A stretch of 64,000 bases of DNA, from assembly GCA_032718475.1 (NCBI GenBank), contig JAUCBJ010007248.1, positions 52,846 to 116,845 on the forward strand, given 5' to 3'. The notes beneath the pieces were generated by a model, which had not been told where the DNA came from, made no database searches, and saw only the letters and a list, made by a program, of their open reading frames with translations. Origin of the DNA: Nemertoderma westbladi. Taxonomy: Eukaryota > Animalia > Xenacoelomorpha. Both the position numbers and the translations under genes were made by a program. Position 1 is the stretch's first letter. Every line of letters begins with the position of its first letter. Below are positions 13,262-52,221 of the stretch, piece by piece.

Positions 13262-13876
13262 TCAGAGATTCTGGGAGTATATCTCCTCTCCCTCTGAATC
13301 TCCCTCTTCTCCTTCTGACACTACTTCTCCTGAGCCCGGGACCCGGGCCCGGGACCGGGACTTTCTCATCGGCGGCCAGGCCTCCCTATCGCTCAGAAAC
13401 TGTGGCCCGTGTTGCCACAATACTTCCTTCTTCAAGAAAGTGTGGCGTACCACGCCCCTCGATAACAAGTCCGCTGGGTTCTCGTCCGTTGGGCAGTAGT
13501 GCCACCTTTCCAGTTCTGTGGTCGCCCTTATTTCGTCCACTCTATTCGCGACGAATATAGGGTATCTCGTCCTTTCGTTGTGTAGCCAACCGAGCACTAC
13601 CATGGAATCCGTCCAGTAGTGTGTTTCCACTATGTTGGGAATAGCGTCCACTAAGTAGGCTGTGGCCCTAACTCCTAATCTCGCAGCTGTCAACTCGAGT
13701 TTCGGAACTGATGCTGAGTCTGGTGGCGTCGACTTCGCTTTACTGAATGCGAGTCTGGGCTTGTGAGCCCCCTCTCGTTGTACTAAGTAGAGTGCCGCCC
13801 CATATGCCTCTAATGACGCATCGGAGAACATATGTAGATCCAGATTCGTCGATGTCCCCATCCGGGAAATATACAC
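13262..13876 (-). pseudogene. BEL-1 RNase H
   Basis: FSDAS..AYGA, PKLEL, WTDS, FVANRV, NPADLLSRG; frameshifted relative to RT. Confidence 0.9.
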
Positions 13877-15158
13877 GCGGCATGCTGTATGTTCCCATCT
13901 GCTCTAAACTCTCTGTCCACTTGTTCCACTGCTTACTAATCTCTTCTGGGACCTCTGCGTCCCACTCGTCCTTTAATTTGTATACTCTCTTGAGTATCTG
14001 TTTCCCCGTGACTAGTAATGGGGATGCTAGGCCTAGGGGATCGTATATCCTCGCTATATATGACACATAGCCCCTCTTTGTGTGGATACCTGCTCCCTCC
14101 TGACTCAATTGGTATTTTAACTCGTCTGTCTCTCTGTTCCACACGATTCCCAGTGCCTTCTGTTGAGACTCTATCCTCTTGTTCGCCATGTCCTGCCCCT
14201 TGGCTGTTGTGGGATTATCCATGGTCGATCCTGGTCTCTCGTCTTTTATTGCCTCGATAAATTCCTTCGAACTGGATTGGAATTTGGTTAGGTTGAAGCC
14301 GGATCCTTTAAGGATGTCGCGAACCTCGCGCCCTGTGTCCAGTAGCTCCTTAACCGTATTTCCAGACTCCATCCCGTCGTCTACGTAGAAGCCGCGTCGA
14401 ATCATATCGACGGCTTTGGCGCTGAACTTATCTTCCTTCCCTGCTACCGTATCTCTTACGGCCATAGTCGTTGTAAACGAAGACGACTTGGCTCCCATAT
14501 TCTGTACTACCATCTTATACATTGGTATGGTCGACGGTTCCTCATCGCCGTCGTACCATAGGAAGCGTTGGCTGTCGCTATCCTCTCCCGTTACACGGAC
14601 TTGGTTGAACATGCCTTCGATGTCGCAGGTGAAAGCGTGTTTGCCATTCCTGAATCTGAGTAGGACCTCGATCCCTGAGTTGTAGATGTTGGGACCCTCC
14701 AGCAGATAATCGTTTAGGCATTTCCCGTTGGTCTTGGCTGATGCGTCAACTACCATCCGCAGTTTACCTTTCTTCGGGTCTATAGCCACGTGGAGTGGCA
14801 GGTAATAGGTCCTGTCCGTGTTTGGCTCGTCGACCGGTAACTCCATGGCCCATCCTTTCTCGACATACTTTCTAATTGTCTTGTGGATGTACTCATTCTT
14901 CTCGGGGCTCCGTTTTAACGTCTGCTTTAACTTGCGAAGCCTCGTAAGTACCATCCCTTTGTTGTCGGGTAACGGTAGCTTTGGTAGCTTCCATACCATC
15001 CCTATGGTATACCGCCCCTCATCGCATGTCATCGATTCCTTTACACTTTGTAAAGCCTGCTTGTCTTCTACCGAGGTTCCGACCCCGGTCTCCTTTAATC
15101 CCTCAAAATCCTGCCTGAGCAGTCTCCTGAGCTGCTCCTCTGCTCCCTCATCCTCCAT
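13740..15158 (-). CDS. BEL-1 reverse transcriptase segment
   Basis: YYLPLH, KLRMVVDAS, LNDYLLEGP, DIEGMFNQV, FYVDD, YDPLGL. Confidence 0.92.
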   Translation of the reverse strand: MEDEGAEEQLRRLLRQDFEGLKETGVGTSVEDKQALQSVKESMTCDEGRYTIGMVWKLPKLPLPDNKGMVLTRLRKLKQTLKRSPEKNEYIHKTIRKYVEKGWAMELPVDEPNTDRTYYLPLHVAIDPKKGKLRMVVDASAKTNGKCLNDYLLEGPNIYNSGIEVLLRFRNGKHAFTCDIEGMFNQVRVTGEDSDSQRFLWYDGDEEPSTIPMYKMVVQNMGAKSSSFTTTMAVRDTVAGKEDKFSAKAVDMIRRGFYVDDGMESGNTVKELLDTGREVRDILKGSGFNLTKFQSSSKEFIEAIKDERPGSTMDNPTTAKGQDMANKRIESQQKALGIVWNRETDELKYQLSQEGAGIHTKRGYVSYIARIYDPLGLASPLLVTGKQILKRVYKLKDEWDAEVPEEISKQWNKWTESLEQMGTYSMPRVYFPDGDIDESGSTYVLRCVIRGIWGGTLLSTTRGGSQAQTRIQ

Positions 15159-15161
15159 CTC

Positions 15162-20134: not shown

Positions 20135-20167
20135 AGCGTAGTCAGGCAGTAGTCGCTTTCTAGTTAC
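20135..20167 (-). promoter_or_regulatory. BEL-1 non-tRNA primer-binding site, complementary to its own LTR
   Basis: Sense GTAACTAGA directly after the LTR; its complement lies at 20385-20393, with further bulged pairing to 20400-20417. Confidence 0.7.
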
Positions 20168-20749
20168 TGTGACAGGATCTGCGGAGGATCCCGGTTTATC
20201 CGGTTTTTGGTTTCTAGTCTACGCGTCCCCACCATGTGTGAAAGATATAAAGAGTTCTGGGTTATTGATCGATCGATGTATATAAGTTCGGGATATAATA
20301 TAATAGAGATAATAGCACAAAATGGTTGATGTATGATGTAATGTACCGGTAGGTGATATCTTCTGGTGACGGTAGGCGGAGACGGTAACTAGAGTTCCGC
20401 TACTGTCCTAACTAGCTGACTTACTACAAGTGAATGAAATATTGCATGGACCGGTAATATATTGCACAGTTGGCCATATTGCTCTACCCAGTCGATGCTT
20501 CCCCCCTATTGGCTAATATCCTAATTGTCGCCCCTTCACCTTCCCTGGAGTGTTTCCCGTTGCTCCTGTTATTCTCTCTCTCTCTCAGGGGTGTAACCCC
20601 TGACCCCTTTGTGCGTATGTCCTCTGGGGTTTCCTTGTCCACACTTTATTGGGGTGGTACGAGGTTGATATTGGATATCGACCTCGTGTTCCCAATATTG
20701 CTTAAAGCTCACTTTATGGGGCTGGTTAGCGGAATTGAATACGCTAACA
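20168..20749 (-). repeat. BEL-1 5' LTR (582 bp)
   Basis: Direct repeat of 7944-8526. Confidence 0.95.
20431..20463 (-). promoter_or_regulatory. Putative TATA plus initiator of the BEL-1 LTR (TSS ~20435)
   Basis: Sense ATATATTA about 27 nt upstream of TCATTC, which matches the TCAKTY initiator. Confidence 0.45.
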
Positions 20750-30300: not shown

Positions 30301-31485
30301 TGTTCGCGCTTTTGAAGACCTTTAGCAGTTTAACCTGCCAAAATTTATATGTCTTTTAGTTAATTAACACACCTTTAGCATACGACAATATTTTATGCTA
30401 ATAAACAAAACATTAGCCGAAGCCAGCCCATGCGCGATCATTCACCCGATGGATCTACACCCGGGAGGCTGAATTCGGATGCTTAGATTTTATTATTGCA
30501 GTGTAAGGTTGCAGTGTAAGCCTACTGTATTATTCGATTGATCGCTAATATGTAATTTCTGACAGATATTATTAACTTTCGGGAAATATTAACAGTTCCT
30601 TTAGGACGTGGCGCTCTATCTATTTAAACAGAGCTAGGACTTATACTAAACGCAACGATAAGGCTTATGATTAAAGTATAAGTCGCATTCTTTAGGAAAT
30701 GCTTTGTTACCAGTCACATCACACTCACAATCATGCACACTATTCTGCCGACCGTCAGTATATTTGATCACACATAAAGAGAACAGCAATTGACTCAGGT
30801 AGTGTCTACTAAATAACATTAGATTCAATACACACCACATTGATATAAATCGCAATTGTTATATATAGCCCGCCTCTCTAACCTGTAGTGTATCAAGAAA
30901 ATTGGGAATTTTGGGTGATTTATCCGTATTCTCCAAAGAGCAATATTTCCATCAACAAATAGATACAATTAATAACTGACGGTAAATAGCAGTACAAACA
31001 ATATGATTAGTGCAGTTAAATTAAGTGAGGTAACACCGCCGGTAACAGTTATACTTTCTATAATCTAAGCAGTTTTTGCTAGAGTTGTTCCAAAAGCCGG
31101 TGTTATGGCGAAAAATGGGAACACAACAACAGAAACATGTGACTACTGCTCTATACGAAGATACCAACTCCCTTATTCCACGAAGCTCCCGTTCAACACA
31201 GAGGATGAGCATAGAGATAGGAAATTCAGTTCAGTAGCGCTGGGATAGGTCGAAATCAACGCCTACGCAAATTCTATTGGCCGACACGGACAGCAAGGCT
31301 TAGGCAACCTCTCTAGGCTAGTTGGCCGATTAAACTGAGCCCAGATATCTCCGTACAGCACATCAGCCAATAAGCTGGTAGCTTGCACTATTTTAGTTAT
31401 AAATCCCTTTGAGAGTATTCTAGCGACTGGGGGGGAACTGGCCAGCAAAGGCAAACGTATCAGTTATCCCACAAAAGCTTTTACA
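30301..31485 (-). repeat. BEL-2 3' LTR
   Basis: No difference from 40901-42085 seen by eye; preceded on the minus strand by a short purine-rich tract GGGAGCGG. Confidence 0.95.
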
Positions 31486-31563
31486 CCGCTCCCAGAAAAT
31501 GGGATTTGAGTCTATAAAATATACAAAATCACAGTTTCTAAAATATAAAAATACTCTAAACAG

Positions 31564-32280: not shown

Positions 32281-32614
32281 ATCGTGACTAAAAAGGGCAA
32301 TCGAAACTGGCGCGTCCCTTTAGTTGACAATGGTGACATTGAGTCATAAATTGAGGGCAAACCGCAAAAATGTGCAAATTATTAAATCTGCAATACGCGC
32401 AATAAATTTCCATCGCCGGTTGTTCGTGGAAATAGGAACAGCGGACGTTTGTGTCCATGGGCGTAACATGGTCTCTCGATGCGCATAACCGACAACGTTG
32501 CCGAGAAACATAGTTGGCATGGCGATAATCGTACGCAGTGAGACACTGTGGACCTTGATACCATTCTAGGATGTAATCGTTGTCGCTGTTCCGAGCGCGA
32601 TAGGCTGAATCTCC

Positions 32615-33013
32615 TCAGATTCTAGACATATTGGTTCGTCTTCCCAGTCTGTTACGAATAGAATTTTCGTGATCTATTCTCGTTTTATCGTTACGACGCC
32701 GCTGGGTATGATATTTAAATAGAACCATTTCCCTTTCGGTGTCTGCATCGTCCGTATCATGTAAATCGGTAGGATGGCCGGTAGTTAAGAAGTCCATATA
32801 CGTACCATTACGATTCGTATAGCGAGCGGTGAATTTTCTATAGTCCAATTCACGCGTAAGTTGTTCCTGGGACATCGGCGGTTCGATATAACGACCATCG
32901 TCCTCCGTAATAGTCGGATCGGCTTCACCGCGTATTAAGCTATCCACAAACGCTTGTAAAGGTAGAGTATATCGCTCTCTAATACCAAGGTCATCTTCTA
33001 TCAATTCCGTCAT
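32615..33013 (-). CDS. BEL-2 accessory ORF, unknown function
   Basis: 132-aa ATG-initiated ORF in sense orientation downstream of gag-PR. Confidence 0.5.
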   Translation of the reverse strand: MTELIEDDLGIRERYTLPLQAFVDSLIRGEADPTITEDDGRYIEPPMSQEQLTRELDYRKFTARYTNRNGTYMDFLTTGHPTDLHDTDDADTEREMVLFKYHTQRRRNDKTRIDHENSIRNRLGRRTNMSRI

Positions 33014-34637
33014 ATCTGCTATCTGAGTTTATTAATATCAATATGAGTTAATATTTTAGGCAAGCGGGCGTCGCTGCCTACTAGGCTTTTGCCCCCGGAC
33101 AGTGGGTTTCTCAGCGCCGATGTACCGCTGTCGCAGTGTTTACGCCAACATGTAGCAACAGCACGACAACGATAACCGGCACAAGTCCCACCACTGTCCG
33201 TCCCAAAGGCTTGAATCCACTTGAGGTTATCTCGGTAGAGTTAGGGCTACTTTACAATTGCGATTAGCTACTGTAAACACACTTTAGTAGTAACATTCAC
33301 CTATAAACGCACAAATTCCATACAATCATTACTTACTGCACAAATGCATGCCATTTGTCCGTTAGTCAGTGTCTTCCAGAATGTCACGTTATTACTATGT
33401 ATCCTTGGATACTAATAGTGCGCTATGTATACTCTTATGCTACGCAATGGGGCAAGCTTTTTATTGTTCCTTTAACTTGCTTCTAATTCTAGCGTGGGTG
33501 TTGCCATGGTGACATTATGGAAAACTAGCGGTAGAATTAGGGTACTTCTCATGCATACAGATCTGGGATGTTATTTAATAGTAATTCTTTAATTGTCAAT
33601 ATCCTCTTTATGCATGATTTTATAAATTTTATCGGCTATTGACTATATATTGGAGATTCTCGCACTCTAGTACACTCAATATGAATCTCCGCTCCCATGA
33701 TCTATTAATTACTGGAATTTTGGGAATGTTATAAATTGCACAAAATGACAATTTATGAAATTCATTCAAATATGAATTTAAATTTATTCCCGTTAATTTT
33801 ATTATTTGATGTTAAATTGACACAAATTTTATTCCAGAGCATGTCTGGGGACTCAGGATCCTTAATTCTATGAAATCGTCCTTTTAAGAATATCGGTAAA
33901 TACTGCGATATCTTAATTGACTAGAAATTTTAGAGGATCTGAATTTTACAGATTTTAATAAATATTAAATTAATATTTAGGATGGGCACCGATTTATTCC
34001 AGAACTTGTCTGGGGACGTTAACCACTGATTCTAGAATTTGTCTTTCAAGTATATCGGTGGGTGCCGCGATATCTTAATCGACTAGAATTACAGATGGTC
34101 AAAAAGTTTAACAGATTTATTTGCGATTTACGCTACTGTTAGAGGGACATCACGCTACTATATGTATTATTTGTTATAAGGTAGAAGAGCAATATCGCAC
34201 GAAGCAATGTCAGTGTGAAGAGGCAAGTCGTTTCCAAGGTCTACCCAGAGCTTGGTTTAGCCGAGACACGAGGATCTGAACTTTGCATTCCTAATACTCT
34301 GCCTACCAATAATACTTAAATATAGTAGTGGCTTTATTGTACTTTAAGAAGTACTGACATGTCATCTTACTATAGTCTCGCATTTATAATATAATACGGA
34401 CAGTAAGGAAAGAGAAAAATAATTATTTCTTGCCGTCGCACTAAATATATTATAAGTAATTAAGTACGTAATAAACACTAATATATTGCACTAATTTACT
34501 AAATAATCGCTAAAATAACATTCTACTAAATAAAATTAAAGAAAACGATTATAATAAAATTACGTAATAATACATACATAAATATAAAATAAAAACAAAT
34601 ATAAAATGATATAGTCACACGCCCACTCCATATGTTA

Positions 34638-37600
34638 TTACGTTATGGAGTCCCTAGATATTTGTCGGATTAGGGAAGTGGTCGTAGGAAGAGTATCTTG
34701 CCTTCCATAGTTTCCGGACAGTTTTCGGTCTCTTTCCAGTAAACATAAACGACTAGCTGGGCGATTGAGTGGTTGTGTTAGTTTCTCCGCTCCCTTGGCC
34801 TGTCTACTCTCCGCCGTGGTAAGATGAGGAGGCCATTCTTCTTCTTCTTTACTTAAGAAGTCGGATCCACCTAACCAGCCTGGAGTATCTATCAGTTCTT
34901 GAGGAGTTGCTCCTCTGGAAGCGATGTCGGCTGGATTAATCGTCCCAAGGCAATGTCTCCATTGATCTACATTGGAGTTAATATCGTCATTATCTGAGGA
35001 GTATGGTGTTCCCTCAGTTGGGTCGTCCACATCACTGCTCTCCACTTCCCCCTTTACTTGGTATACCTGTTGTTGAGGTAATCTCTCTTTGAGAGTTCTA
35101 CGGGAAGGGCCAGTGAAGTACCAACCTACTCTAGTTCTTACCGCATAGGTTTGTAGTGGCTGTGGTTGAGCAGGCCGTTTCTCTAATGGCTCGAGCGCCT
35201 CATGCGCGTTTTGGCCGATGAGTATTTGCACTCCAGGATAATCGGTTTGGAATCGAGGTATCTCAAGATGTTGGATGCACTCGTCCTCGTCCCAGTTATA
35301 AGGTTCTGCTTGAGTAGTAGCAAAGTTCTTTATAGCCACCATTTTTACTGACCTTATACCTTGTGTTCCTAACTTATCCTGGGGGGTGGACAACACACCT
35401 ACATAGTAATCTGCCGTTAGGGTAGATTTCCAAACCTGCATAATTCCTGACATATTCAATTTAGTCCGGAACTTGGGTTGTCCAGCAAAGATATCTTCGG
35501 CTAGTTCTTGATCGATGAATGTTCCTGTGCTGCCGGAGTCAAGTAGGGCGTTCACTATGTAACTCTTGTTGGGACCATGAACTCGAACTTGCACTACAGG
35601 AAATTCTCTTATTCCTATGTTGGAAGTTGGAACTTTCCAAGATGGTTGTTTGTCAAAAGGAGTTGGAGTAAACTCGTCAGTGTCCTTTTCATCCGTAAGT
35701 GCTCGATACACTGTGGTATTTATTAGATAACAGGATTCGTTGGCATCGGAGAATTCGTCTGTATAGAATCCTTCCCACTCAGAACCTCGGCCAGTGTCGT
35801 TCACATCACTGAATTGGACATGTAGTTCGGGCTCACTTACCTGACTCGGGTTGTCTCGTTCGAACTCACTGTGTAACAAGATGTGATGTTTCGCGCCACA
35901 CTTTGCACACCCTACGTCGGAGTAACAGGTTCGCCGTTGGTGTCCTGATCTGAGGCAATTATAGCATAGCCGCTTATTCCACAGGACTGTACGTCTGTCT
36001 ACAGGGGATTTCTTTAGAAATTCAGCACACGCACTCAAACGGTGAGGCCCGTCGCACAGCGCACATTTTGGTTTGATGTTACTCACCTTAACTTGGTTAA
36101 CGTTATGCACTCTCGTTCTTTCTTCGGGCTTTCTTCCGTGAATTCTCTTAGGAGACGTAGGAGGGGTTGTTGTTACCTGTTCTCTCCTGTCACTGGTTCG
36201 AGACTTGTATTTACTTACGTCTTTATAGGTCTTGTTGTCATAGTAAGATTTTGCTGTGTCTTTCCCGCTGTCCTCTTCTTGAGAAGCTTGGCTTTCGCCG
36301 TCGTCAGTATAACACACTGGTATTATCCTTCTCCTAGAATCGGGTTTCTCACTTACCTTATTTTCCGATGTTTTCTCTCTGGCCTGCCTTATGAGTTGTA
36401 ATTTTACTTCACTATCTAAGAAAGACATGAGATCAGCCATGGTAGGACTTCGTCGTTGTTGTTCATTCATGTACAACACTTTCTTGTCCCAGCGTGTACA
36501 TACTCCACCCTTTGGTAAAGTAGAGACTACGGCTCCAATAACCATGGAACTCTGATATTCATGCGACTTACCTAACCAGTCCAGTTGTCTACAGATCTCT
36601 TGAATTTCATCGGAAAACTCTATAATCCCGCTACTAAGGAAGTGTCGGGGGGCTACTAATTTTGCATACAAATACTTAGCTATGTTATCCTTGTTACCAT
36701 ACCTGATGTTTAGTGTATCCCAAACTTGTCTTAATCCATCTGGATGTCCAATAAACTTTAACGCCATTAACTTGGGAGGTCCTTCCAAGCACTTGATGAG
36801 GAATCTAAGTTTCTCTCCGTTAGATAGTACAGAGTTCTGTATGCTATCTTTGTAATATTCGTTGAAAGGTAACCATTTCATCTCATCTCCATTGAATTTG
36901 ACGATCTCTCCCACTTTGACCGCTTGGCGGGCTTCTGTTCTAGCCATCTGACGCGTAAAGCTTTCTTGGACCATCGTGTTATTTAATATCGAATTATCGG
37001 TATATAAATTTCTCGGATCATTATCAGGTCTATAGGGAATATCATTAATAACAGGTCTATAATCACCCTTAATAGGGTTTGCTATAGGGGTTTCAACTTC
37101 ACTAGCAGTATAGATGCGTGTAGGCTCCACACCTTGCGCATGTAGTACTTCAGACCTAACAGGTTGACACAATGTTACAGGGGGCATTGGTATGCCTTTT
37201 TGTATATTGACTAATTTGTCGCGTTCTAGCGCGATACTTTGCTGCACTTCTTGCAACTCTGCTCTACCTTCCCTCACTGTTCCCTTAAGTTGGTGGACAG
37301 TCTCCTGCATCTGTCCTAGCAGGAGATTCATCCCCCGCCGTCCCTCTTCCACCCACTCAACCGCCGAAGCGGGAGTCGCCAACATAGTAGCGGGCTGACG
37401 CGGGACGACGGGAGACAAATTATTGATTTCTCTCTCTGCTATCTGGACAGGGGTATTTGCATGGACTGTTCCACCGGGTACAGGCAGTGTAGTACTATGT
37501 AAAGGGAATTTAGAGTTAAGCTCTGGAAGTGTAGGGGTCTCTAGCACAGAAGTGACTTTGGGAACAACAGGCCTAATTATTTCAGGTTCATCGACTATAG

Positions 37601-38846
37601 TAGGGAGTCTTTTGACCTGGATAAATTGTTCTATGGGTTCTGCACTACCGAAGTCTGTGCTAGTTAGCTGTCTTTTAACAGCTGGGGGCAAATCAGGCAA
37701 TTTGCGACGGTAATATGTTTTTCTACGCCTACTTAGATGAGATCTATTTCCTCCGCCTTCAGGATCGGTAGTATCGCCTTCCTCCGAGGATGTGTATCCC
37801 TGGCGCTTGGGAGTAGATTTTCTCATCATCTGCATTTGATTAGCAGTAAACTGTTTATTTATACTGTCTTGTGTCTCTTGCAGATTTTCCAACTCCAGTT
37901 GGGTAGTCTGCTCAGATGCTCTCCTTTCTGCTTCTGCCACTGCCTTTGCTGCTTTTCTTTCTGCTTCTGCATCTGCCGCCGCTGCCTTTCTTTCTGCTTC
38001 TGCATCTGCCGCAGCCGCCGCCTTTGCTGCTTTTCTTTCTGCTTCTGCATCTGCCGCCGCTGCCTTTGCTGCTATTCTTTCTGCTTCTACTTCTGCCGCC
38101 GCTGCCTTTCTTTCTGCTTCTGCATCTGCCATAGCCGCCGCCTTTTGTTCCTCTATTCTTCTTTTCTTTATTTGTTCTTCTTGGACTCTAACGAGGCGGA
38201 GTTTTTCATCACATTTAGCTTGTTCTGCAGCTAACATTTCCGCATCGATTGCGTCCAACACAAGCTTGGTTCCTTCACTATTAGGGCGAAGTCCAGACAG
38301 TCGTCTCCTCAACTCTTCGTCTCCTATGAATCGCTGATAGTCTGACAGATATATGTCAATGGCGTCTCTAGTTCGCGGCTTCTCTGCTGCTGTTAATTCG
38401 CTTTCCACTTCGCTTTCCACCTCGCTTTCCACTGGAGAAGAAGTGGCGTCGGTTGATTCTTCATAGGTTGGCCGCTCATCATAAACCATATCCGCCATCT
38501 TCGCTCCGCGTTCGGGCGTCCGCTCAACAGTATCCGAACTACTGGAGCTATCGGGCCGCTGAGAACTAGGTTCTTGGCTAGGAGGTTGCTGCTGTTTTAT
38601 AGCTTCTTCTTGATCCCGCTTGACTTGGGCCCGAGTGCCTATGGCAGACCAACGGCGCTTCACTAACTTCGCAAAATGCGAAATCGCTTCTACCAACCTA
38701 GGTTCTGATACAACCACTGCAGGGGTTGCCCTTCTTACAGTATGAGGGGTTTCAGACCTCGGTCTGGGATTCTCTACACTTTGATCTGAGAAACAGTCTG
38801 TTGTTTCTAGGAGACTATCTGACAGAGTTTGCCTTGTGTCAGCCAT
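34638..38846 (-). CDS. BEL-2 Gag-protease polyprotein with RT/RH and IN cores removed in frame
   Basis: Uninterrupted 1402 aa: KFNGDEMKWLPF, three knuckles (CALC..H....C, CYNC...GH....C, CAKC...HH..LH), LLDSGS, TRVGW..TGP, then WRHC....NPADIASRG, then RPASRLCLLE. Confidence 0.92.
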   Translation of the reverse strand: MADTRQTLSDSLLETTDCFSDQSVENPRPRSETPHTVRRATPAVVVSEPRLVEAISHFAKLVKRRWSAIGTRAQVKRDQEEAIKQQQPPSQEPSSQRPDSSSSSDTVERTPERGAKMADMVYDERPTYEESTDATSSPVESEVESEVESELTAAEKPRTRDAIDIYLSDYQRFIGDEELRRRLSGLRPNSEGTKLVLDAIDAEMLAAEQAKCDEKLRLVRVQEEQIKKRRIEEQKAAAMADAEAERKAAAAEVEAERIAAKAAAADAEAERKAAKAAAAADAEAERKAAAADAEAERKAAKAVAEAERRASEQTTQLELENLQETQDSINKQFTANQMQMMRKSTPKRQGYTSSEEGDTTDPEGGGNRSHLSRRRKTYYRRKLPDLPPAVKRQLTSTDFGSAEPIEQFIQVKRLPTIVDEPEIIRPVVPKVTSVLETPTLPELNSKFPLHSTTLPVPGGTVHANTPVQIAEREINNLSPVVPRQPATMLATPASAVEWVEEGRRGMNLLLGQMQETVHQLKGTVREGRAELQEVQQSIALERDKLVNIQKGIPMPPVTLCQPVRSEVLHAQGVEPTRIYTASEVETPIANPIKGDYRPVINDIPYRPDNDPRNLYTDNSILNNTMVQESFTRQMARTEARQAVKVGEIVKFNGDEMKWLPFNEYYKDSIQNSVLSNGEKLRFLIKCLEGPPKLMALKFIGHPDGLRQVWDTLNIRYGNKDNIAKYLYAKLVAPRHFLSSGIIEFSDEIQEICRQLDWLGKSHEYQSSMVIGAVVSTLPKGGVCTRWDKKVLYMNEQQRRSPTMADLMSFLDSEVKLQLIRQAREKTSENKVSEKPDSRRRIIPVCYTDDGESQASQEEDSGKDTAKSYYDNKTYKDVSKYKSRTSDRREQVTTTPPTSPKRIHGRKPEERTRVHNVNQVKVSNIKPKCALCDGPHRLSACAEFLKKSPVDRRTVLWNKRLCYNCLRSGHQRRTCYSDVGCAKCGAKHHILLHSEFERDNPSQVSEPELHVQFSDVNDTGRGSEWEGFYTDEFSDANESCYLINTTVYRALTDEKDTDEFTPTPFDKQPSWKVPTSNIGIREFPVVQVRVHGPNKSYIVNALLDSGSTGTFIDQELAEDIFAGQPKFRTKLNMSGIMQVWKSTLTADYYVGVLSTPQDKLGTQGIRSVKMVAIKNFATTQAEPYNWDEDECIQHLEIPRFQTDYPGVQILIGQNAHEALEPLEKRPAQPQPLQTYAVRTRVGWYFTGPSRRTLKERLPQQQVYQVKGEVESSDVDDPTEGTPYSSDNDDINSNVDQWRHCLGTINPADIASRGATPQELIDTPGWLGGSDFLSKEEEEWPPHLTTAESRQAKGAEKLTQPLNRPASRLCLLERDRKLSGNYGRQDTLPTTTSLIRQISRDSIT

Positions 38847-40086
38847 GTTTGTTTACACAGTTGAATGCCTACGGCTACAAATACAGTCAAAGTAAGTCTA
38901 GTAATTCAGTATCACCGTTAGCCTAATAATTAATTGCCGATACTGCTGCTCAGTGTAGCGTGATATATATATAATATATTAGAATACCGGTATGCTTATA
39001 ATATATATATAAGTATTATTACAGACTAGATTTGTCACAGAGTACCGGTATATAATTTTAGCACAAATATATATAAATATATAATAGGCCTATCGTGAAT
39101 ACCGGTATGTCAATTATTTTAAAATAATTGAATTTCTGAATGTTAGGGATTACTTGGTTACTTTACTTACTCTATTACCGTTATTTGAGCAGCAGTCCAA
39201 CTGATATTAAGACCTAAGTGTTGTAGAACAGGCCTACTATTTTATTAATAGATTTAGTGGATTTATATGTACCCTTATGAGGGGTTTTATTACAATATTG
39301 AAATAGATGTTACTATTTCTGGGGGGAGTCACTACACAGAAGCTGTGCGCTCTCAGTGGAGTGCTACCTATGGGACACTAAAACAGATAATTCTAATTTA
39401 CCTAAGTTACTTATTACTACAAATTACTTACAATACGGGTGAGATTAATTCTCTAATTAAACACAACAAAAATATTACGTACGAATTTTTTAGGGTAATT
39501 TTACAGGAAGTCTACAACCAGCCTAACAAAGGGTTAGAATTCTGGTTATTACAACGGACAGGGTACTACGGTATTTGAAATAATAAGTAGTAGTAAATAT
39601 ATTGTACTGTCCAGATAGGAAAATACCACCGCCTGACGACCTATAACCGTATCGCTATAGGTACTACGTTATGTATCACGGATTGTTCCTACCCAGAAGC
39701 TAATAGAGCTAACGAATGTGCCTATCAACCTCTTTACAACACAAATATACTGCCTACACTAATTACTTCGGAAAGCACTGTACACTAAACCCTAAATTAG
39801 GTACAAGTACCGGTATAACAAATAATCAGTAGTTAAATATACTTGAACAGTTAAAAGAACCACGGCATCTGCTGGAGTGACCGAAGCACAAAATCTCCAG
39901 TCTTTACCTACGCCGAGCAGCCCTGATGTAGTACCGGGGTTAATTTAACTATAACGGTATGTATAACAAGCACAATTACTGTAGGAATAAACTTGGGGAC
40001 ATGAATGTTGCGAATAATCGCATAAACTCTGAATAATAAATATTACGCTACCCGTACAGAATACTCAAACAAATACAAACCAAACG

Positions 40087-40600
40087 CTGGCAGACTACTA
40101 TTAAGCCTAAACAAACTACAGTATGTGCAGATTCTGAAACTGTTAGTTAGTATGCGTTCTAACACGGTAGTACGACTTACTCTTTAAGAGGGGATTGACC
40201 TTACCGCTTATGGCTGCCCCAACTTACTAACGGCACTTGATCAGACCAACTCTACACACGCAGCAATCCCTTCAGACCCAAAAATAGCCAGACAACAATC
40301 CAGCCTACAAATATTTGAGTAATAACTATTACGGTACCTGAACAGACCACACAAACAAACACAGGCTAAAACACTGGCAGACTACGATCAAGCCTAAATA
40401 AACTACAGTATATGCAGACTCTGAAACTGTTAGTTAGTATGCGTTCTAACACGGTAGTACGACTTATTCTTTAAGAGGGGATTGACCTTACCGCATATGG
40501 CTGCCCCAACTTACTAACGGCACTTTATCAGACAAACTCTACACACGCCGTAATCTCTCCAAACTCAACAACAGTCAGACAGCAGCTCAGCCTACAATTA
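40087..40600. repeat. Direct repeat in the BEL-2 5' leader (period ~287 bp, two copies)
   Basis: CTGGCAGACTAC...CTGAAACTGTTAGTTAGTATGCGTTCTAACACGG...GGCTGCCCCAACTTACTAACGGCAC at ~40087 and ~40374. Confidence 0.85.
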
Positions 40601-40888
40601 TCTGAACAATCTGAGCAGGTTCACACGCCTTCTGCTCAATATTAGCCTACTAGTAAATAAAACCGACAGAAATAAGTAAACTATACAAAAGAATGAGGGG
40701 TGATCAATCCCTATTCCCCTGGCAGCCTACAATATACAATAGATCACAATCGAAATAATACTAAATGTACTTGTACAGCAGTACCGGTACCGGTGATGAC
40801 AGTTAGGCCTACTGACCTACAGAAGTACCGGTTCAGTTTTACCGGTCACTACGGTATTTTGCAACCTTATTGCCTACTGCAATAAGAT

Positions 40889-40900
40889 TATAACTGTTAC
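40889..40900 (-). promoter_or_regulatory. BEL-2 non-tRNA primer-binding site, complementary to its own LTR
   Basis: Sense GTAACAGTTATA directly after the LTR; perfect 12-nt complement at 41642-41653. Confidence 0.75.
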
Positions 40901-42085
40901 TGTTCGCGCTTTTGAAGACCTTTAGCAGTTTAACCTGCCAAAATTTATATGTCTTTTAGTTAATTAACACACCTTTAGCATACGACAATATTTTATGCTA
41001 ATAAACAAAACATTAGCCGAAGCCAGCCCATGCGCGATCATTCACCCGATGGATCTACACCCGGGAGGCTGAATTCGGATGCTTAGATTTTATTATTGCA
41101 GTGTAAGGTTGCAGTGTAAGCCTACTGTATTATTCGATTGATCGCTAATATGTAATTTCTGACAGATATTATTAACTTTCGGGAAATATTAACAGTTCCT
41201 TTAGGACGTGGCGCTCTATCTATTTAAACAGAGCTAGGACTTATACTAAACGCAACGATAAGGCTTATGATTAAAGTATAAGTCGCATTCTTTAGGAAAT
41301 GCTTTGTTACCAGTCACATCACACTCACAATCATGCACACTATTCTGCCGACCGTCAGTATATTTGATCACACATAAAGAGAACAGCAATTGACTCAGGT
41401 AGTGTCTACTAAATAACATTAGATTCAATACACACCACATTGATATAAATCGCAATTGTTATATATAGCCCGCCTCTCTAACCTGTAGTGTATCAAGAAA
41501 ATTGGGAATTTTGGGTGATTTATCCGTATTCTCCAAAGAGCAATATTTCCATCAACAAATAGATACAATTAATAACTGACGGTAAATAGCAGTACAAACA
41601 ATATGATTAGTGCAGTTAAATTAAGTGAGGTAACACCGCCGGTAACAGTTATACTTTCTATAATCTAAGCAGTTTTTGCTAGAGTTGTTCCAAAAGCCGG
41701 TGTTATGGCGAAAAATGGGAACACAACAACAGAAACATGTGACTACTGCTCTATACGAAGATACCAACTCCCTTATTCCACGAAGCTCCCGTTCAACACA
41801 GAGGATGAGCATAGAGATAGGAAATTCAGTTCAGTAGCGCTGGGATAGGTCGAAATCAACGCCTACGCAAATTCTATTGGCCGACACGGACAGCAAGGCT
41901 TAGGCAACCTCTCTAGGCTAGTTGGCCGATTAAACTGAGCCCAGATATCTCCGTACAGCACATCAGCCAATAAGCTGGTAGCTTGCACTATTTTAGTTAT
42001 AAATCCCTTTGAGAGTATTCTAGCGACTGGGGGGGAACTGGCCAGCAAAGGCAAACGTATCAGTTATCCCACAAAAGCTTTTACA
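40901..42085 (-). repeat. BEL-2 5' LTR
   Basis: Direct repeat of 30301-31485. Confidence 0.95.
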
Positions 42086-42992
42086 AAACCCGTATAACGC
42101 AATAAACAAGATGATACTATCTACTGATCAATTTGCTTATTTTCCAAAATTTGGTGCTGGCACAACAATTTTCACCCACCGGCGAAAAATACAATGTTTG
42201 AAAACTCTTATGAAATTTTTACCGATTCCATTGAATTCAGAACACTCACAATCCCGTATAACGCAAGAAACAAGGTGACACAATCAATTTATATATTTGA
42301 TGGTTTTCAAAATTTGGTGCTAGCACCACATTTTGCACCCACTTCCGAAAAATTCAATTTTGTGATAACTAGTTCGAAAATTATATATTCCATTCAATTC
42401 AGAATAGCCATAAACCTCTAAAACGCAAGAAATAAATTGCCACAAATAAGTTTATCAATTGAATGGATTTTCAAAATTTCGTGCTAGCACCAAAATTTGC
42501 ACCCACCACCGAAAAATACAAGTTCGATACGCTTGGTGCAACTCGTATATATTTCATCGAAACCAGAACACCAAAAAACCCCAATTGCGTAAAAAACAAG
42601 TTTCACGCAATCAATTTACAAAATTGACATATTTCAAAATTTGGTGCTGGCACCAAAAATTGGCACCCGCCGAAAAAAACAAGTTTGAAATTTCTAAATC
42701 AATTTATATGAATTCCATCCAATTTCTAACACCAAAAAACCGGTGTAAATCAAAAATAGAGATGTTGCAATTCATATTTAATGAAATGTAATTTTCAAAA
42801 AACGTCTCAAAAAAAGAGCCAAAAGCAAAAAAAAATATTTTTGAAAACGGTTTTCACTACTAGGAAGACAATAGATTTTTAGGAAAAGTCATAAAATTTC
42901 AGATTCCCAACTGCGTTTGTTTCAGAATTATAATAAAAAAACCACGGGGGGGGGGGGGTCATATTGACCCCCCCCCCCCGGGTTTAATAGGG

Positions 42993-43437
42993 TTAATGTT
43001 GATGGAAACTTGACAACCATTGATAATAATCAACTAAGGAAGGTCGATGACTTCCAGTACCTTGGATCATGGATAGAGAGTAGCAAAAAGGACATATAAG
43101 TTAGGAAAGCAAAGGCTTATTGGGTAGCTTTATCAAAAATGGATACCATCTGGAAATCAGATCTCTCCAGGCACCTGAAGACTAAGTTCTTTCGAGCCAC
43201 AGTGGAAAGTGTATTTTTATACGGGGGTGAGACCTGGACACTGACTAAATCACCGAATTCGAATCATCGAATTGATGGTTGCTACACAAGACTACTAAGG
43301 GCAGCCCTAAACATCAGCTGGAGACAACATATGACAAACGCCGAGCTTTATGGTACAATACCACCTGTATCAACCACCCTCCGTGAACGCAGATTAAGAT
43401 TCAGTGGGCACTGCTGGCGAAGTAAAGACGAGGTCAT
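42993..43437 (+). pseudogene. RTE LINE RT, 3' continuation of 25810-26662
   Basis: TTAA-TGTTGATGGA restores MTFNVDGNL; FQYLGSW, FRATVESVFLYG.ETW, RRLRFSGHCWR. Confidence 0.9.
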
Positions 43438-43440
43438 ACC

Positions 43441-44520
43441 AGATGGAGAATCGGGAAGCCTGGAAGGATCTCATTTCCACTGTCGGAGTTCGCTCGACCT
43501 AGTAGTAGTATGTTTGAGAATGAAATTCAAGTTTGGTTGACAAATGGGTTTATTGTAGAATATGACCCGATTGTACACGGTGAAATTGAATGTGTGTTAC
43601 CGTTAATGCCTGTGGTCCAGGAACACAAGATCACAACTCCTGTGAGACCTGTATTAGATTACTCAATGTTAAATAGTTGCTTGGTGAGTTTTCCAGGACA
43701 ACAAATGGGAATATGTAATAATAAATTGCGAAACTGGCGACAGGGTTCATCAAATAGTACGATTATAGATATTAAAAAAGCATATTTACAGATAAGAGTT
43801 GCTCCATATTTGTTGAAATATCAAGCACTTTTATACAAAGATACTATTTATATAATGACACGAATGGGGTTTGAATTAGAGATTGCGAGAAAAGTTTTAG
43901 AAACTGTGATTGAGTTCATCTTTAGTGTTAGCAAATTTCCCGAAAATGCAGTAGATTTCTATGTGGATGATGTCTATTGTGATGAGAATTTGGTATCTGC
44001 AAGTTCAGTGGAAATTGCTTTGAACAATTACGGTTTACCCACAAAACCCCCTACAAGTATCAAAGAAAATGACGTTTTGGGCTTACATGTATTCGAAGCA
44101 AATTCTGAGTTGTGTTGGAAGCGACGTAACAAAGGTGATCTTATACCAGATTTATTTAGCATGATTCGAAGAGGTCTACATTCATGGACTGGTAAGGTAA
44201 CTGGCCTATATCCCGTATGCAGTTGGTTACGATTAGCCTGCAGTTGGTTGAAACGACAATGTATAGGAGATTGGGATAGTCCAGTTGACTCATGGATATT
44301 AAAATTGGTGAAAGTTACATGGGAGAGCATATGTAATAACGATCCAGTATGTGGAGTATGGAATGTAAATACTCTTAATGGAAATTGTGTGATGTGATGC
44401 TAGTGACATTGCTAGAGGAGTTCTTCTAGAAGTCGATGGTAGAATAATTGAGGACGCTGCTTGGCTACGAAAGAAAAATGAATCAAAAGCTCATATCAAT
44501 GTGGTGGTCAACAGCGTGGT
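43441..44520 (+). pseudogene. Divergent LTR-retrotransposon pol fragment (RT to start of RNase H), BEL/Pao-like
   Basis: PVVQ..K...VRPVLDY..LN, DIKKAYLQI, TRMGF, FYVDD, VLGL, CDAS..A.GV, EDAAWLR, HIN. Confidence 0.75.
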
Positions 44521-44540: not shown

Positions 44541-45729
44541 TCGTTTGTCATGTGTTGTCTCCAGCTGATGTTTAGGGCTGCCCTTAGTAGTCTTGTGTAG
44601 CAACCATCAATTCGTTGTTCAAGTGATTTAGTCAGTGTCCAGGTCTCACCCCCGTATAAAAATACACTTTCCACTGTGGCTCGAAAGAACTTAGTCTTCA
44701 GGTGCCTGGAGAGATCTGATTTCCAGATGGTATCCATTTTTGATAGAGCTACCCAAGCCTTTGCTTTCCTAACTTCTATGTCCTTTTTGCTACTCTCTAT
44801 CCATGATCCAATGTACTGGAAGTCATCGACCTTCCTTAGTTAATTATTATCAATGGTTGTCAAGTTTCCATCAACATTAAAGGTCATAAATTCGGTCTTG
44901 GTAGCATTTATATGCAATCCAACCTCCTTAGCAGCCCTCTCCACTTGATTTAGTAGAAGCTGTGCATCTGCTAGCGTATTAGAGAGCAGGGCGATGTCAT
45001 CCGCAAAGTCGGTGTCTGTGACTGTAGTTGCCGGATATCTACTACTTCTGCGTTCTTGAAGTGTGAATCCCAGATCTTCACCCTTTGTGGCCGTCCTCAT
45101 TGCGTAATCCAGCACAATTACAAATAGTAATGGTGCTAATGTGTCACCTTGCAATACGCCAGCCAGGATTGAGAAAAATTCAGTTTCACCATCTGGTGAG
45201 AGTACCTGCGCTTCTGTGTCACAATATAACAATCCAATGCCATCAATAATTACTTCTGGTATTCCATAAGCTCGTAGGATTTCAAGCATTTTACCTCTAT
45301 GGATGGAGTCGAATGCCTTCTTGAAGTCCACAAAAGTCATGACTGCGGGGAGATTCTTTGACTTAATTCCTTCAATCAGTCTCCGTAGTGCAAGTATCTG
45401 AGCTATTGTTGATCTACTTGGTCGAAATCCGTTTTGGCTCTTACGCAGTAGTTTCTCTATGTGAGGCCTAATCCTATATAGAATCATTTTATTGTATATT
45501 TTGGCAGCTACCACAAGCAGACAGATCCCAGGATAGTTCGTTGGTATGCCGAGGTCTCCTTTCTTGGGGAGAGGCTTTGGTTGACCTTTACTCCAAATTG
45601 GTGGTGGCTTTTCCCCTTTTAGCATACGGTTGCAAACATTCAATAATGGTCTATTTAGCACTCCGGTTTTCCATACCTCCGCTGGGATTTCATCTAATCC
45701 ACTTGCTTTATTATTGGACATGCTTTTAA
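44541..45729 (-). pseudogene. Second RTE LINE RT fragment, inverted
   Basis: ORFs 44840-45721 and 44483-44737 nearly identical to the plus-strand copy; in-frame stop at 44840. Confidence 0.92.
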
Positions 45730-48105
45730 CCCTATTAACCCTTTGGTTACTAGGCCCTTTTTTAAATAGCCCCCCAGAACCTAAAAATTAAGCAAACTTT
45801 AAAACATATTTACGGCAATGCCAATCATCTAGAAGTTATGACACATTTTTAAAATGATTTGACTTTTATCTTAAAAGGTGTCATGATTGATATTCTTCAT
45901 ATTTTTTTAATTTAAAAAAATTAAATTTTTAAAAATTAATAAAAAAAATTTTAATTAAAAATTTTTTTTTTAATTAAAAAAAAAAATTTTTTTGAAAATT
46001 AAAAAATGAAAAAATTTTTTATTTTTCTGAACTATATCATATATATTATTATATTTCATGGTCTATTTATAGTATCGGTATAATCTATATGACTTATTTA
46101 TGATAATCTGCAAAGCATTTATCAAGGCAGAGCCCTGGATATAAACTGTAAATGAATGATAAAAAATACAGTATAAATGAATAATTATTGTAATACCAAA
46201 ATGCAATATAGCTTCATTATTGCAGAATTACCACAATAATCCACCAGGATGCTAGTACAGGAACAATCATCATTCCCATTATTCTATTTACGAAATACAA
46301 TTACGTAATTCACCAATATGAAGAATACCAGGTTTTCACTTTTCACTTTTCAGTCATGTCATGTATTTATTTATTATTACAAAGTAGATTATTACAGTGG
46401 ATAGCTTGACAGGGAAATAAACTCTGATTGGTTGGAATTCTCAAGGGCTACTCATTCAAACCTCTGCCATATCATACTGTACAAGGTACAATCAATCTGC
46501 TTTCAATAAGCAGCCTTCTTTTTCTGAAAAGGAGCTCATCACTGATTGGTTGAATTCCAACCTCTAACTCAAACTCCAGATCACTTTTTTTAACTAAAAC
46601 GGGTAGTATAGTGTCCTAAGCGATGGATAAACACTGCTAAAATAACCTAAACTTGAATCATCCCCATTGGCAGCCATTAACACCAGGACGTATATATACG
46701 TCCTTAGGACACTGTTGAGGACGTATATATACGTCCTTAGGGCTCAAAGGGTTAAACCCGGGGGGGGGGGTCAATATGACCCTTCCCGTGGTTTTTTTAT
46801 TATAATTCTGAAACAAACGCAGTTGGGAATCTGAAATTTTATTACTTTTCCTAAAAATCTATTGTCTTCCTAGTAGTGAAAACCGTTTTCAAAAATATTG
46901 GGTACTTTTCGAGTTATAGCACCATTTTTTAACCCTACTTTTGCCATTTTTTTTGAGACGTTTTTGAAAATTACATTTAATTAAATATGAATTGTAACAT
47001 CTCTATTTTTAATTTACACCGGTTTTTTGGTGTTAGAAATTTGATGGAATTCATATAAATTGATTTAGAAATTTCAAACTTGTTTTTTTCGGTGGGTGCC
47101 AAATTTTGGTGCCAGCACCAAATTTTGAAATAAGTCAATTTTGTAAATTGATCGTTTGAAACTTGTTTTTTACGCAATTGGGATTTTTTGGTTTTCTGGA
47201 TTCGATGAAATATATACGAGTTGCACCAAGCGTATCAAACTTGTATTTTTCGGTGCTGTGTGCAAATTTTGGTGCTAAGCACAAAATTTTGAAAATCCAT
47301 TCAATAGATAAAATTGCTTGTGACAATTTATTTCTTGCGTTTTAGAGGTTTATGGCTGTTCTGAATTCAATGGAAAAAATAATTATCGAACTAGACATCT
47401 CAAACTTGTATTTTTCGGATGTGGGTGCAAAATGTGGTGCTAGCACCAAATTTTGAAAACCATCAAATATATCAATTGATTGTGTCACCTTGTTTCTTGC
47501 GTTATACGGGTTTGTGATGGTTCTGAATTCAATGGAAACAGTAAAAATTTCATAAGAGTTCTCAAACTTGTATTTTTCGCCGGTGGGTGAAAATTGTTGT
47601 GCCAGCACCAAATTTTGGAAAATTACAGTATGCAAATTGATAAGTAGATAGTATCACCTTGTTTCTTGCGTTATACGGGTTTATGAGGGTTCTGAATCCG
47701 ATGGAATCAATAAAAACAGCACTGGACATCGCAAACTTGTACTTTTTAGTGATGGGTACGAAATTTGGTGCTAGCACCAAACTTTGCCAAATTACGCCGA
47801 AAAATACAGGTAGCAATAATCTGGCATATTAGAAATGTATTCCATTAGAATCAGCGCCCTCGAAAACCTGAAAATGTGAATTTATAGCATCGTATAAGTG
47901 AATTAAAAATTTTGTGTTCTAACTGAAAAGTGCTGGTTACTTGTTTTTTTTAATTTTTTTCCTACGCAGAGAGGACTAAACAGCCATTTATAGTAATCAT
48001 ATCATTTTTTAATATTTTCCAATGTATTTTGCACCCCAGAAAACCTGTATTAAAAAATAATTAGCCGAAAATGTAACCTTCAAATTTGGTGAAAATTGTG
48101 CACTA
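45730..48105 (-). mobile_element. MITE-A copy 3 (inverted, truncated at its left end, carrying nested MITE-B)
   Basis: TTAA|CCCTATTAA...ACCCGGG terminus, then the reverse complement of MITE-A up to ~48105. Confidence 0.85.
45739..46751. mobile_element. piggyBac-like MITE-B (1013 bp)
   Basis: TTAA|CCCTTTG ... CAAAGGG|TTAA; two GGACGTATATATACGTCC palindromes near the right end. Confidence 0.85.
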
Positions 48106-48985: not shown

Positions 48986-51336
48986 TTGTGGCGGTGCAAA
49001 TTTGTTGATAAGCTGGCACATCATTCTTAATGCATGCTGCATTGGGTTTGCCAATTGTCGATTGAATGGTAGTGTCAAAATATTTTTTTTAAGACAGCAT
49101 AGCTTCTCATGTGCAGCTGCAATGCAGCAGTCCGATTGTAGTTAGAGATAATACGTATTTATCATATGGCTGCCGCAACCCAGTGTAAGTAGTTTTGCTA
49201 ACAGTTTAACACATGAAATTCGGTCAAAAGCTTTACTAAAATCTACTAATATTGAAAAGCTTCTTCCTAGCTACGGAACTCGTTGTCTTCTGGACGGTTA
49301 AGATCATTAGATTCACATATTTCGCTATTCCACCCAATATCTTCCCAGATAGTCTTTGCAGCAATATCATTTAATAGCTTTTTCTGGCTGTCGAGTAGTC
49401 TGGTAGTCTAGCTGTCTAGAGGAATCGGGATTTAGGGATTCGATAGGGATTCGATCATTGCCGAGGCTGAAAATACGTAGATTTTGTATTATTTTTTCGT
49501 CTCTGATTCGTTTTTACCGATTGATGTCTCACAGTTTATTTTTACCCGCTAACATCTTTAGTGCCCCCATCTACCACCACCCCACCCCCCTTATTTTCAT
49601 CTGGTAGGCCCCAAATGGCCCATACTAACAGAACACCTTTCTTATCTTAAACTTAAATATTATTATCATATTTTGGACGTAACAAATGAATTCTAAATTA
49701 GCAGTAACTAAATTATGCAATATGTTGCATATATCTCTATATTAATCGATAATACAGTCGCTTGTACTAAAATTCCATTGAATATAATCCCTTGTGTTAC
49801 TGTTACGGTATGAGTTACTGAGCTGTGAGCTTGTAAAATATATCATGCGGTGAAATCCATATTTGTTTGTTTGCTTGATACTGTTTCATACATCAACATT
49901 GTTATCAGACACACTAGTGATATCACTATATATCTCTACAGTGATATATAATCATTCTGTGGAGCATGGCTACATTAGTAGACATCATAATTTAAATTTA
50001 AATTGAATTCAATTAAATTAGACACTACAAGCTTGGAAATCCCAGCATAATACTGTACTAGGAGACAAAAGGGGACAGTTCGTCTAACTTATGGCACCTA
50101 ATAATAAAGCCAGTAATATGGCGAATGTAACTGTATGCATATTATTTGTGGCCATACTTGGGGTAATGCTTGTAGTTACTGAGGGTACTGATATTTAAGG
50201 GCAAGTGGAATCTGTGTTCGATTGAAGCATAGCATATATGTTCCTGATGATTTTAGTGTTGTCAGAAACCTGACTGAAGGATCAGCTATTGGCATCACGG
50301 ATGCTTGCTGCTGCCGGCTGGCTGCGTCTACAGAACACGGCTGTATAGGATCACCGCTCCCAGACGGCACAAATTATAAAATATAAACTTTATGTGTCCT
50401 TTATCGAAAGAAATAAATTTAATTTAGAGGTAAATCAAAAGATACATTAATTTGAAAACCTTAAATTATAATAACTTTAAAAATTTAAAGTTCTTTTAAG
50501 AACCTAAAAGAATTTTAAAACCTATGGGTTGTGGGCAAGGCGTCCTTTAATACAATTATATTGACGCCTTGGTTGAGGGCGAGCTTTGCTTAATATACTG
50601 CAATTAATCTCTTGTTATCTACAATAGTCGGCGTATAATATCTTATAGTATCAATTATATTATAGGTGTACGCCATTAAGTGTGCATTTTAATTTTTTAA
50701 TTTTCATTTTAATTTTATGATTTCAGAGATCTATCTTGCCATTAACAGAGTCTTTGGGAATTTTTAACTTTTAGTTGAAGTAGCTGTGTTAATTACAATT
50801 GAGGAACGGTTTTTTGAAATATAATATTATGATACAACCAGGAATTAATGATTGATGTTGATGGAATAGGATTTGTGCGCGAAAAAATTGTTCGGCTAGA
50901 AACAATTGAAGAAGGGGGGGGGGGGGGGGCAAGGTGCCCTGAATCGAGTGGCGGGGTTTATATTTTGTAAAAACAGGAGGAAGCTGTCAAAATGGCGGGT
51001 TTATTAAAAAAAACATACCTAAAAACTACAACTACAACTAATTTATTTCTGAGTATGTTAAGTTCAATAAGTTTGATATCATGACGTCAATAAATGTATA
51101 TTAAACATAATTCTGAGTTATCTGGCAGTTTCATGCCTCAGCGATGGTTTAGAGAAGGGATTAGATTTACCATCAATCTGCAATTAATAATTAGATTTAC
51201 AGAAAGAAATTAGATGTTTGAAATTAATTAATAATAATTCAGTGGGGTCGCTTAAAGATCTACTACTACTACTACAGTAGGTCGAGCGAAATCGGACAGT
51301 GGAAATGAAATCCTTCCAGGCTTCCCGATTCTCCAT

Positions 51337-52221
51337 GGTGCTGGCACATCAATTTTCACCCTCCGACGAAAAATACAAGTTTGAAAACTCTTATGAAATT
51401 TTTACTGATTCCATTGAATTCAGAACCCTCACAAACCCGAATAACGCAAGAAACAAGGTGCCACAATCAATTGATATATTTGATGGTTTTCAAAATTTGG
51501 TGCTAGCACCACATTTTACACCCACTTCCGAAAAATACACAAGTTTACATAAGTTTGAGATGTCTAGTTCGATAATTATATATTCCATTGAATTCAGAAC
51601 AGCCATAAACCTCTAAAACGCAAGAAATAAATTGTCACAAGCAATTATATCTATTGAATGGATTTTCAAAATATCGTGATAGCACCAAAATTTGCACACA
51701 GCACCGAAAAATACAAGTTTGATACGCTTGGTGCAACTCGTATATATTTCATCGAAACCAGAACCCCGAAAAACCCCAATTGCGTAAAAAACAAGTTTCA
51801 AACAATCAATTTACAAAATTAACATATTTCAAAATTTGGTGCTGGCACCAAAATTTGGCAGCCGCCGAAAAAAACAAGTTTGAAATTTCTAAATCAATTT
51901 ATATAAATTCCATCCAATTGCTAACACCAAAAAACCGGTGTAAATCAAAAATAGAGATCTTACAAATCATATTTAATGAAATGTAATTTTCAAAAAACGT
52001 CTCAAAAAAAGTGCCAAAAGTAGGGTTAAAAAATGGTGCTATAACTCGAAATCTACCCAATATTTTTTTGAAAACGGTTTTCACTACTAGGAAGACAATA
52101 GATTTTTTTGGAAAAGTCATGAAATTTCAGATTCCCAACTGCGTTTGTTTCAGAATTATAACAAAAAAACACAGGGTGGGGGGGGGGTCATATTGACCCT
52201 TTCCCCCCGGGTTTAATAGGG
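51337..52221 (+). mobile_element. MITE-A copy 4 (right half only)
   Basis: Matches ~27360-28225 and ends GGG|TTAA. Confidence 0.85.

Follow-up and report, generated by a model that had tools for sequence, protein, structure and literature searches.

The window analysed here is a stretch of 64,000 nucleotides from Nemertoderma westbladi (contig JAUCBJ010007248.1, positions 52,846 to 116,845), which contains two retrotransposons with long terminal repeats (LTRs), BEL-1 and BEL-2, both on the minus strand. BEL-2 spans positions 30301-42085. LTR comparison places its 5' LTR, which begins with TG and ends in CA, at 40901..42085 and its 3' LTR at 30301..31485, both of 1185 bp and 100% identical, with a purine-rich tract ahead of the latter (31486..31495). 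The element is flanked by a 5-bp target-site duplication, GGTTT (42086..42090, second copy at 30296-30300), and a contig of sequencing run X1 omits exactly BEL-2 and one copy of this duplication, which is consistent with an empty site. The long open reading frame (ORF; 34638..38852, minus strand) encodes Gag, with a DUF1759 domain according to Pfam, and a protease-like region, followed by a short piece of the region that comes after RNase H. When the window was searched with 108 BEL-type proteins, Gag, protease and this short piece were found in BEL-2 and reverse transcriptase (RT), RNase H and integrase were not detected, an absence missed by the sequence-only reading that preceded this work. 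As this copy lacks RT, RNase H and integrase, BEL-2 needs a helper, and we conclude that it is a recently inserted, non-autonomous BEL/Pao element. Its leader, between the element's primer-binding site (PBS) and gag, measures about 2 kb (38853-40888, minus strand) and includes an internal 242-nt repeat (40082-40323 and 40369-40610), while gag itself contains alanine/glutamate-rich coding repeat units of 33 nt (window positions 37898-38145). BEL-2 lies inside one copy of a repeat family with internal units of ~160 nt and inverted ends, which is found in both orientations at 26667-28230, 29651-30303, 42086-42996, 46752-48105 and 51336-52226.

BEL-1 spans 7944-20749 and has a 5' LTR of 582 bp (20168..20749), a 3' LTR that is 98% identical to it (7944-8526) and the target-site duplication GTTTC. 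All Pol domains are present, spread over several frames, in the order protease, Peptidase_A17, Integrase_H2C2 and rve (Pfam), and the RT/Peptidase_A17 frame (13740..15161, minus strand) was the query for our searches and trees. The two elements are distant from each other: their LTRs differ in length and sequence, as had been noted, and do not align, Gag identity is ~21% and blastn gives no match between them. Both have extra 3' ORFs past the pol position (32288-32614 and 9701-10237, minus strand), whose Cys/His-rich knuckle-like motifs give a weak alignment between the two elements (25% over 77 aa, E 1e-4); the 3' ORFs at 31564-32319 and 10231-11211 had no Pfam match, and the five 3' ORFs tested had none in 80 metagenome loci. 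Elsewhere in the window we found a 39-nt tandem array, an alanine/glutamate-rich coding repeat outside both elements (23360-23879), a DUF7047 ORF (43426-44397, plus strand), another Gag-protease-RT ORF that heads for the end of the window (58262-61255, plus strand), and a second RT fragment (44840-45787, minus strand), of which an inverted copy lies near 25810-26662.

In both elements the 5' LTR is followed by a sequence other than TGG, and no tRNA or Rfam match was found within the window. In BEL-2 the terminal ACA of the LTR is followed, flush with the LTR end, by GTAACAGTTATA (40889..40900, read from 40900 to 40889 on the minus strand), and the LTR contains an exact 12-nt complement of this sequence at 41642..41653 (minus strand), followed by CG, just as the sequence-only reading had described. 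This 12-mer is the candidate self-primer of BEL-2, with a predicted 3' end at 41642. The figure of 1 in 14,000 previously given for such a match arising by chance is arithmetically correct; in our controls none of 2000 shuffled LTRs reached 12 nt and, among 1400 positions of the BEL-2 leader, only position 1 did so. In BEL-1 the PBS position is occupied by GTAACTAGA (20159..20167, minus strand), from which pairing reaches over ~45 nt of the leader. The candidate self-primer region of BEL-1 (20385..20435, minus strand) consists of an exact 9-mer (20385-20393) and an extended duplex that reaches as far as an initiator-like TCATTC near 20435, upstream of which lie TATA-like and CCAAT motifs. The exact 9-nt match was reached by 4 of 2000 shuffles and at 4 of 1400 leader positions; the extended duplex lies above chance, its energy being equalled in 0 of 60 shuffles and its alignment in 19 of 5000, and it is the minimum free energy (MFE) structure in cis in 10 of 12 folds starting at or upstream of LTR position 331. 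Primers assembled by splicing were rejected for both BEL-1 and BEL-2, as the best canonical junctions gave 0 and 6 nt, less than the contiguous 9 and 12 nt, and a 15-nt splice join in BEL-2 was dropped since its donor context was non-canonical. The BEL-1 LTR does contain a GTAAGT with an AG at a distance of 36 nt (20389-20424, minus strand), this AG lying within the candidate primer; splicing there would destroy the match, and this pair is therefore probably due to chance or a relic.

Both the BEL-1 9-nt match and the BEL-2 12-mer read GTTAC/CG at the predicted primer end, as had been reported, and ACAGTAAC occurs four times in the window, always on the minus strand, two of these occurrences lying at the LTR ends of BEL-1 and BEL-2. 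The first five PBS bases are common to the two elements; from base 6 onwards the PBSs differ, each matching its own LTR only. This pattern had been taken for covariation, a term that calls for caution here: as the two LTRs do not align, what is seen is a PBS that fits the LTR of its own element and not column-wise compensation. The proposal that a bulged duplex extends the BEL-2 pairing to about 41700 fared less well: the blocks can be matched up visually, but an equally good alignment is obtained with 922 of 5000 shuffled leaders, and the energy of a 50-nt BEL-2 duplex was equalled by 7 of 60 shuffled LTRs. Moreover, a hairpin of the BEL-2 leader (40862..40890, minus strand, leader nt 11-39; pair probability ~0.9) is predicted to compete with this extended duplex. 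The long duplex, proposed earlier to exceed the 11-nt Tf1 primer, was retained for BEL-1 but not for BEL-2, in which the significant match is 12 bp, comparable to the 10-15 nt found in relatives.

Sequencing run X1 contains one extra base behind 40891 in most of the coverage of the BEL-2 PBS (depth 27.4 of 36.7, two contigs). Nine pairs at the priming end are kept in this variant, and the exact 12 is broken unless the LTR changed too; the single listed contig over the 12-mer, at low cover, is unchanged, and none of the listed contigs covers both PBS and 12-mer. Cover at the primer is low in this run, and among the joints listed for its contigs none reads as an LTR intron, but neither observation carries weight as evidence.

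We collected relatives by scanning 29 of 64 parts of metagenome data with a BEL-1 RT profile; the best 80 of 480 related stretches were kept, representing 54 families. Viral contigs gave 355 pattern matches, with no relative among them. In 14 families the 5' LTR end was fixed by comparing 5' and 3' copies, with no use of pairing, although two of these ends (L059 and L067) are not CA and a third (L023) rests on an 82%-identical relative; L034 was kept outside this set because its repeat boundary was unclear. A first scan, with an offset of at most 4 nt from the LTR end, a strict acceptor filter and a match of at least 10 nt, returned 9 of the 14 families. After this result we loosened the scan (offset of at most 5 nt, one pyrimidine fewer, and the L063 LTR used for the L023 family), and found a match to the family's own LTR over 10-15 nt in 12 of 14, contiguous in two and running across a GT..AG junction in ten. 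Under the same relaxed scan, decoy positions in the leader passed in 7 of 1056 cases and pairings between different families in 12 of 240, six of the latter among three families that have one PBS. The junctions in the ten families have GTAAG, GTGAG or GTACG donors and pyrimidine-rich YAG acceptors. Of the two families left, L077 has a TGG site, which we take to be of the tRNA-Met type, and L067 shows neither a self-match nor a tRNA-type site. The self-complementary architecture proposed for BEL-1 and BEL-2 thus reaches far beyond them, and its construction from a predicted splice junction in most relatives is something that could not have been seen from the window.

One family connects the two forms. 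In L052 the junction is interrupted by an intron of 536 nt, whereas L051, of the same family, has a 3' LTR without exactly this intron and with a contiguous 11-nt match, with the proviso that short-read contigs may merge copies. Such an intron-less LTR is the expected leftover of a reverse-transcribed spliced RNA. Three sister families, L027, L023 and L043, have the same 11-nt PBS core and LTR introns of 164, 406 (in L063) and 366 nt, respectively. In 31 further loci the LTR end was inferred among up to 55 ACA sites, a weaker approach in which the pairing picked the end: 18 reached at least 10 nt, of which 15 were accepted (11 spliced, 3 contiguous and 1 starting at the acceptor) and L046, L003 and L061, with 10-11 nt at doubtful ends, were left unlabelled. 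L020, also with an inferred end, has a TGG site, presumably of the tRNA-Arg type, and neither of the two tRNA-type families (L077 and L020) shows a self-complementary match. In all matching families the duplex ends at the LTR terminus or within 0-5 nt of it.

Of the 12 relatives, 11 have a predicted primer that ends in AC, a feature for which the scan did not select, and one has AT; the base that follows is C in ten and G in two. L051/L052 were counted here at the acceptor shown by the intron-less copy, the scan having chosen a tied upstream acceptor. GUUAC/CG had been suggested as a shared processing site; a GTTAC end occurs in none of the 12 relatives, and the common feature is mostly AC/C. 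Ten of these relatives, all but L070 and L080, have an AATAAA or ATTAAA downstream of the primer end, and so does BEL-2, where the sole AATAAA of the LTR (41089..41094, minus strand) is found 548 nt downstream; no such signal is found downstream of the BEL-1 primer end.

A quick tree of RT plus integrase with 43 rows, made up of metagenome loci and search matches without named clade references, groups all 27 self-complementary loci under a single branch (SH-aLRT 99), together with two loci with no match and three unlabelled proteins, one of them from Danio; the tRNA-type L077 and L020 lie outside it. On this tree the character changes once between self-complementary and tRNA-type sites and five times between spliced and contiguous primers. 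BEL-1 forms a long branch, and a tree in which it is forced into the self-complementary clade is not rejected (p-AU 0.511), which is not evidence of membership. BEL-2, having no RT, has no place in the tree, and its Gag-protease scores were uninformative as to its position.

Self-priming has been described for Tf1/sushi elements, and predictions of it exist for the TAR lineage of Copia and for Tcn1, according to the available text of the sources (PMC6317226, PMC4600332, bioRxiv 2022.12.06.519325). The arrangement in BEL-1 and BEL-2 resembles that of Tf1, Tf2 and Tj1 of the Tf1/sushi group (Ty3/gypsy chromoviruses), in which, as far as the accessible text goes, a PBS adjoining the 5' LTR complements an upstream LTR segment and there is no tRNA site (PMC4600332, bioRxiv 2022.12.06.519325). 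The pattern is also similar to that of the Ty1/copia TAR lineage (to which Houba and Osr-1 belong) and of Tcn1 chromoviruses, for which a self-complementary PBS is predicted in otherwise tRNA-primed superfamilies, but these belong to other superfamilies than the BEL elements, are called plant elements and, in the available text of PMC6317226, are not mentioned with a spliced primer. BEL-1 and BEL-2 differ from Tf1/sushi in being BEL/Pao elements by DUF1759 and Peptidase_A17, with no chromodomain match in Pfam, and most of their relatives differ from Tf1 in having the primer split by a predicted intron. The two duplexes that flank the Tf1 primer in its "pretzel" were not found in a crude duplex-versus-shuffle test: on either side p<0.05 was reached by 1 of 13, and by BEL-1 or BEL-2 on none. 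That the primer forms the extreme 5' end of the RNA is putative in the BEL elements.

The 2021 ICTV profile of the Belpaoviridae (Semotivirus) calls BEL/Pao replication poorly understood and describes tRNA priming, from an 18-nt PBS for host tRNA-Arg or tRNA-Gly (PMC8742986). Both of our elements agree with this profile in having TG...CA LTRs within the range of 0.2-1.2 kb and a purine tract, and BEL-1 has the order Gag-PR-RT-RH-IN; however, a tRNA-type PBS is found in neither, and at 11.8 kb (BEL-2) and 12.8 kb (BEL-1), with extra 3' ORFs, both exceed the 4.2-10 kb given there (PMC8742986). Judged from their sequences, BEL-1 and BEL-2 are BEL/Pao elements by protein and variants in their predicted priming. 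We found no description of self-priming or of a spliced primer in BEL/Pao in the literature, although subscription papers, Repbase, GyDB, the full ICTV report and supplements could hold one; the terms 'PBS' and 'tRNA' are absent from the available text of PMC554778, PMC3118150 and PMC6238403, and that of PMC3601003, PMC8220671 and PMC12451622 adds nothing on BEL priming. These observations suggest a known mechanism, self-priming, in a new superfamily setting for which we found no printed description.

BEL-2 probably primes reverse transcription from the 12-mer in the RNA of its own LTR instead of a tRNA. The likely reading of the sequence is a Tf1-like self-priming in which BEL-2 is an intron-less form that would use the RT of a helper. 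Transcription would start in the BEL-2 5' LTR upstream of 41653, and the 12-mer would pair with the PBS. Tf1-type priming depends on a cut that frees the primer end, and in Tf1 this cleavage is made by the RNase H of the RT, as stated in a cited title. In BEL-2 the cut in the RNA would fall after the terminal AC, between 41642 and 41641, and the helper element's RT would probably make it with its RNase H; in BEL-1 the predicted cut is after 20385. The helper RT would then extend the cut end across the LTR terminus, halt at the cut and transfer to the 3' R, which in BEL-2 would come from the downstream AATAAA.

When retroelements prime from tRNA, the attached primer is copied during plus-strand synthesis. 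In the same way, plus-strand synthesis in these elements may recopy the PBS from the attached primer and so keep the PBS matched to its own primer, which would account both for the fit of PBSs to spliced junctions and for the match of every family to itself. For most relatives we predict that splicing of an LTR intron joins the primer, and BEL-1 and BEL-2 would be intron-less forms of the same system. Since the cut would mark the end of strong-stop DNA, an intron lying upstream of the cut would be inherited from the 3' LTR copy and lost only if that copy were spliced. We give an even chance to the broader proposal that, in a large and widespread BEL/Pao branch, an AC-ending self-primer replaces the tRNA, is usually assembled by the spliceosome from two LTR exons and is recopied into the PBS in each cycle, with the intron surviving because strong-stop DNA ends before the junction, and with BEL-1 and BEL-2 as intron-less members, the latter with a helper RT.

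It is possible, but unlikely, that the same 12-mer primes in trans, from a second packaged RNA, a short spliced or terminated LTR transcript or the 3' LTR copy. The promoter motifs of the BEL-2 LTR allow for this: CCAAT motifs lie upstream of the 12-mer (one at 41876..41880, minus strand, a promoter hint only), and TATATA (41460..41467, minus strand) and CCAAT are also found downstream. If the TATATA were a working TATA box it would conflict with priming in cis, since a transcript starting there would lack the 12-mer at its 5' end. Folding of BEL-2 in cis is also marginal over the 741 nt that separate PBS and 12-mer. Of 30 folds with varied ends, nine have all 12 bp in the MFE structure and forcing the 12 bp costs 0-8.3 kcal/mol, which is in favour of the main reading; in the other 21 the pairs are absent or incomplete and local pairings occlude the PBS. 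Furthermore, relatives must retain the intron in the 3' copy yet use a spliced primer, a combination that would come easily with a separate RNA. Pointing the other way are the BEL-1 extended duplex, which reaches the initiator-like motif, itself preceded by TATA-like and CCAAT motifs, and is the MFE structure in cis in 10 of the 12 folds mentioned above, and the poly(A) signals that most relatives have a short way downstream of the primer end.

We consider it improbable that the pairing serves packaging, dimerisation or translation control as an RNA structure while the real primer is something else. Priming here is deduced from sequence, and the competing folds of the BEL-2 leader do resemble a switch; yet in every matching family the duplex ends where a primer end must sit, close to the LTR terminus, no tRNA-type site is found in its stead, and the two families that have a tRNA-type site have no such match. 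It is very unlikely that both elements are primed by a small RNA or tRNA fragment of the host with GUUAC at its end, the LTR match being incidental. The five shared PBS bases would fit, and half-tRNA priming is known in Copia lineages according to the available text of PMC6317226, but the divergence of the two PBSs from base 6, and the many different PBSs of the relatives, each matching its own LTR or junction, are at odds with a common primer. Chance complementarity in an AT-rich repeat, to which the short exact match of BEL-1 and the chance-level extension in BEL-2 might point, is scarcely credible, being already contradicted by the shuffles of BEL-2 and by the excess of matching relatives over decoys.

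Should self-priming from the LTR hold for BEL-2, a non-autonomous element could use a self-primer with a helper RT, and should it hold for the whole BEL/Pao branch, the mechanism would extend to a third LTR superfamily. Self-priming BEL/Pao elements would then be beyond the reach of control by 3' tRNA fragments, and would go unnoticed by annotation tools that rely on a tRNA PBS. If real, a primer assembled through splicing would make retrotransposition dependent on RNA processing by the host and would explain how LTR introns persist. With cut sites predicted after 41642 in BEL-2 and after 20385 in BEL-1, the question is testable, and zebrafish may offer a testable member of the branch, as L076, a contiguous self-complementary locus with an inferred LTR end, is sister to the Danio rerio protein P0009.
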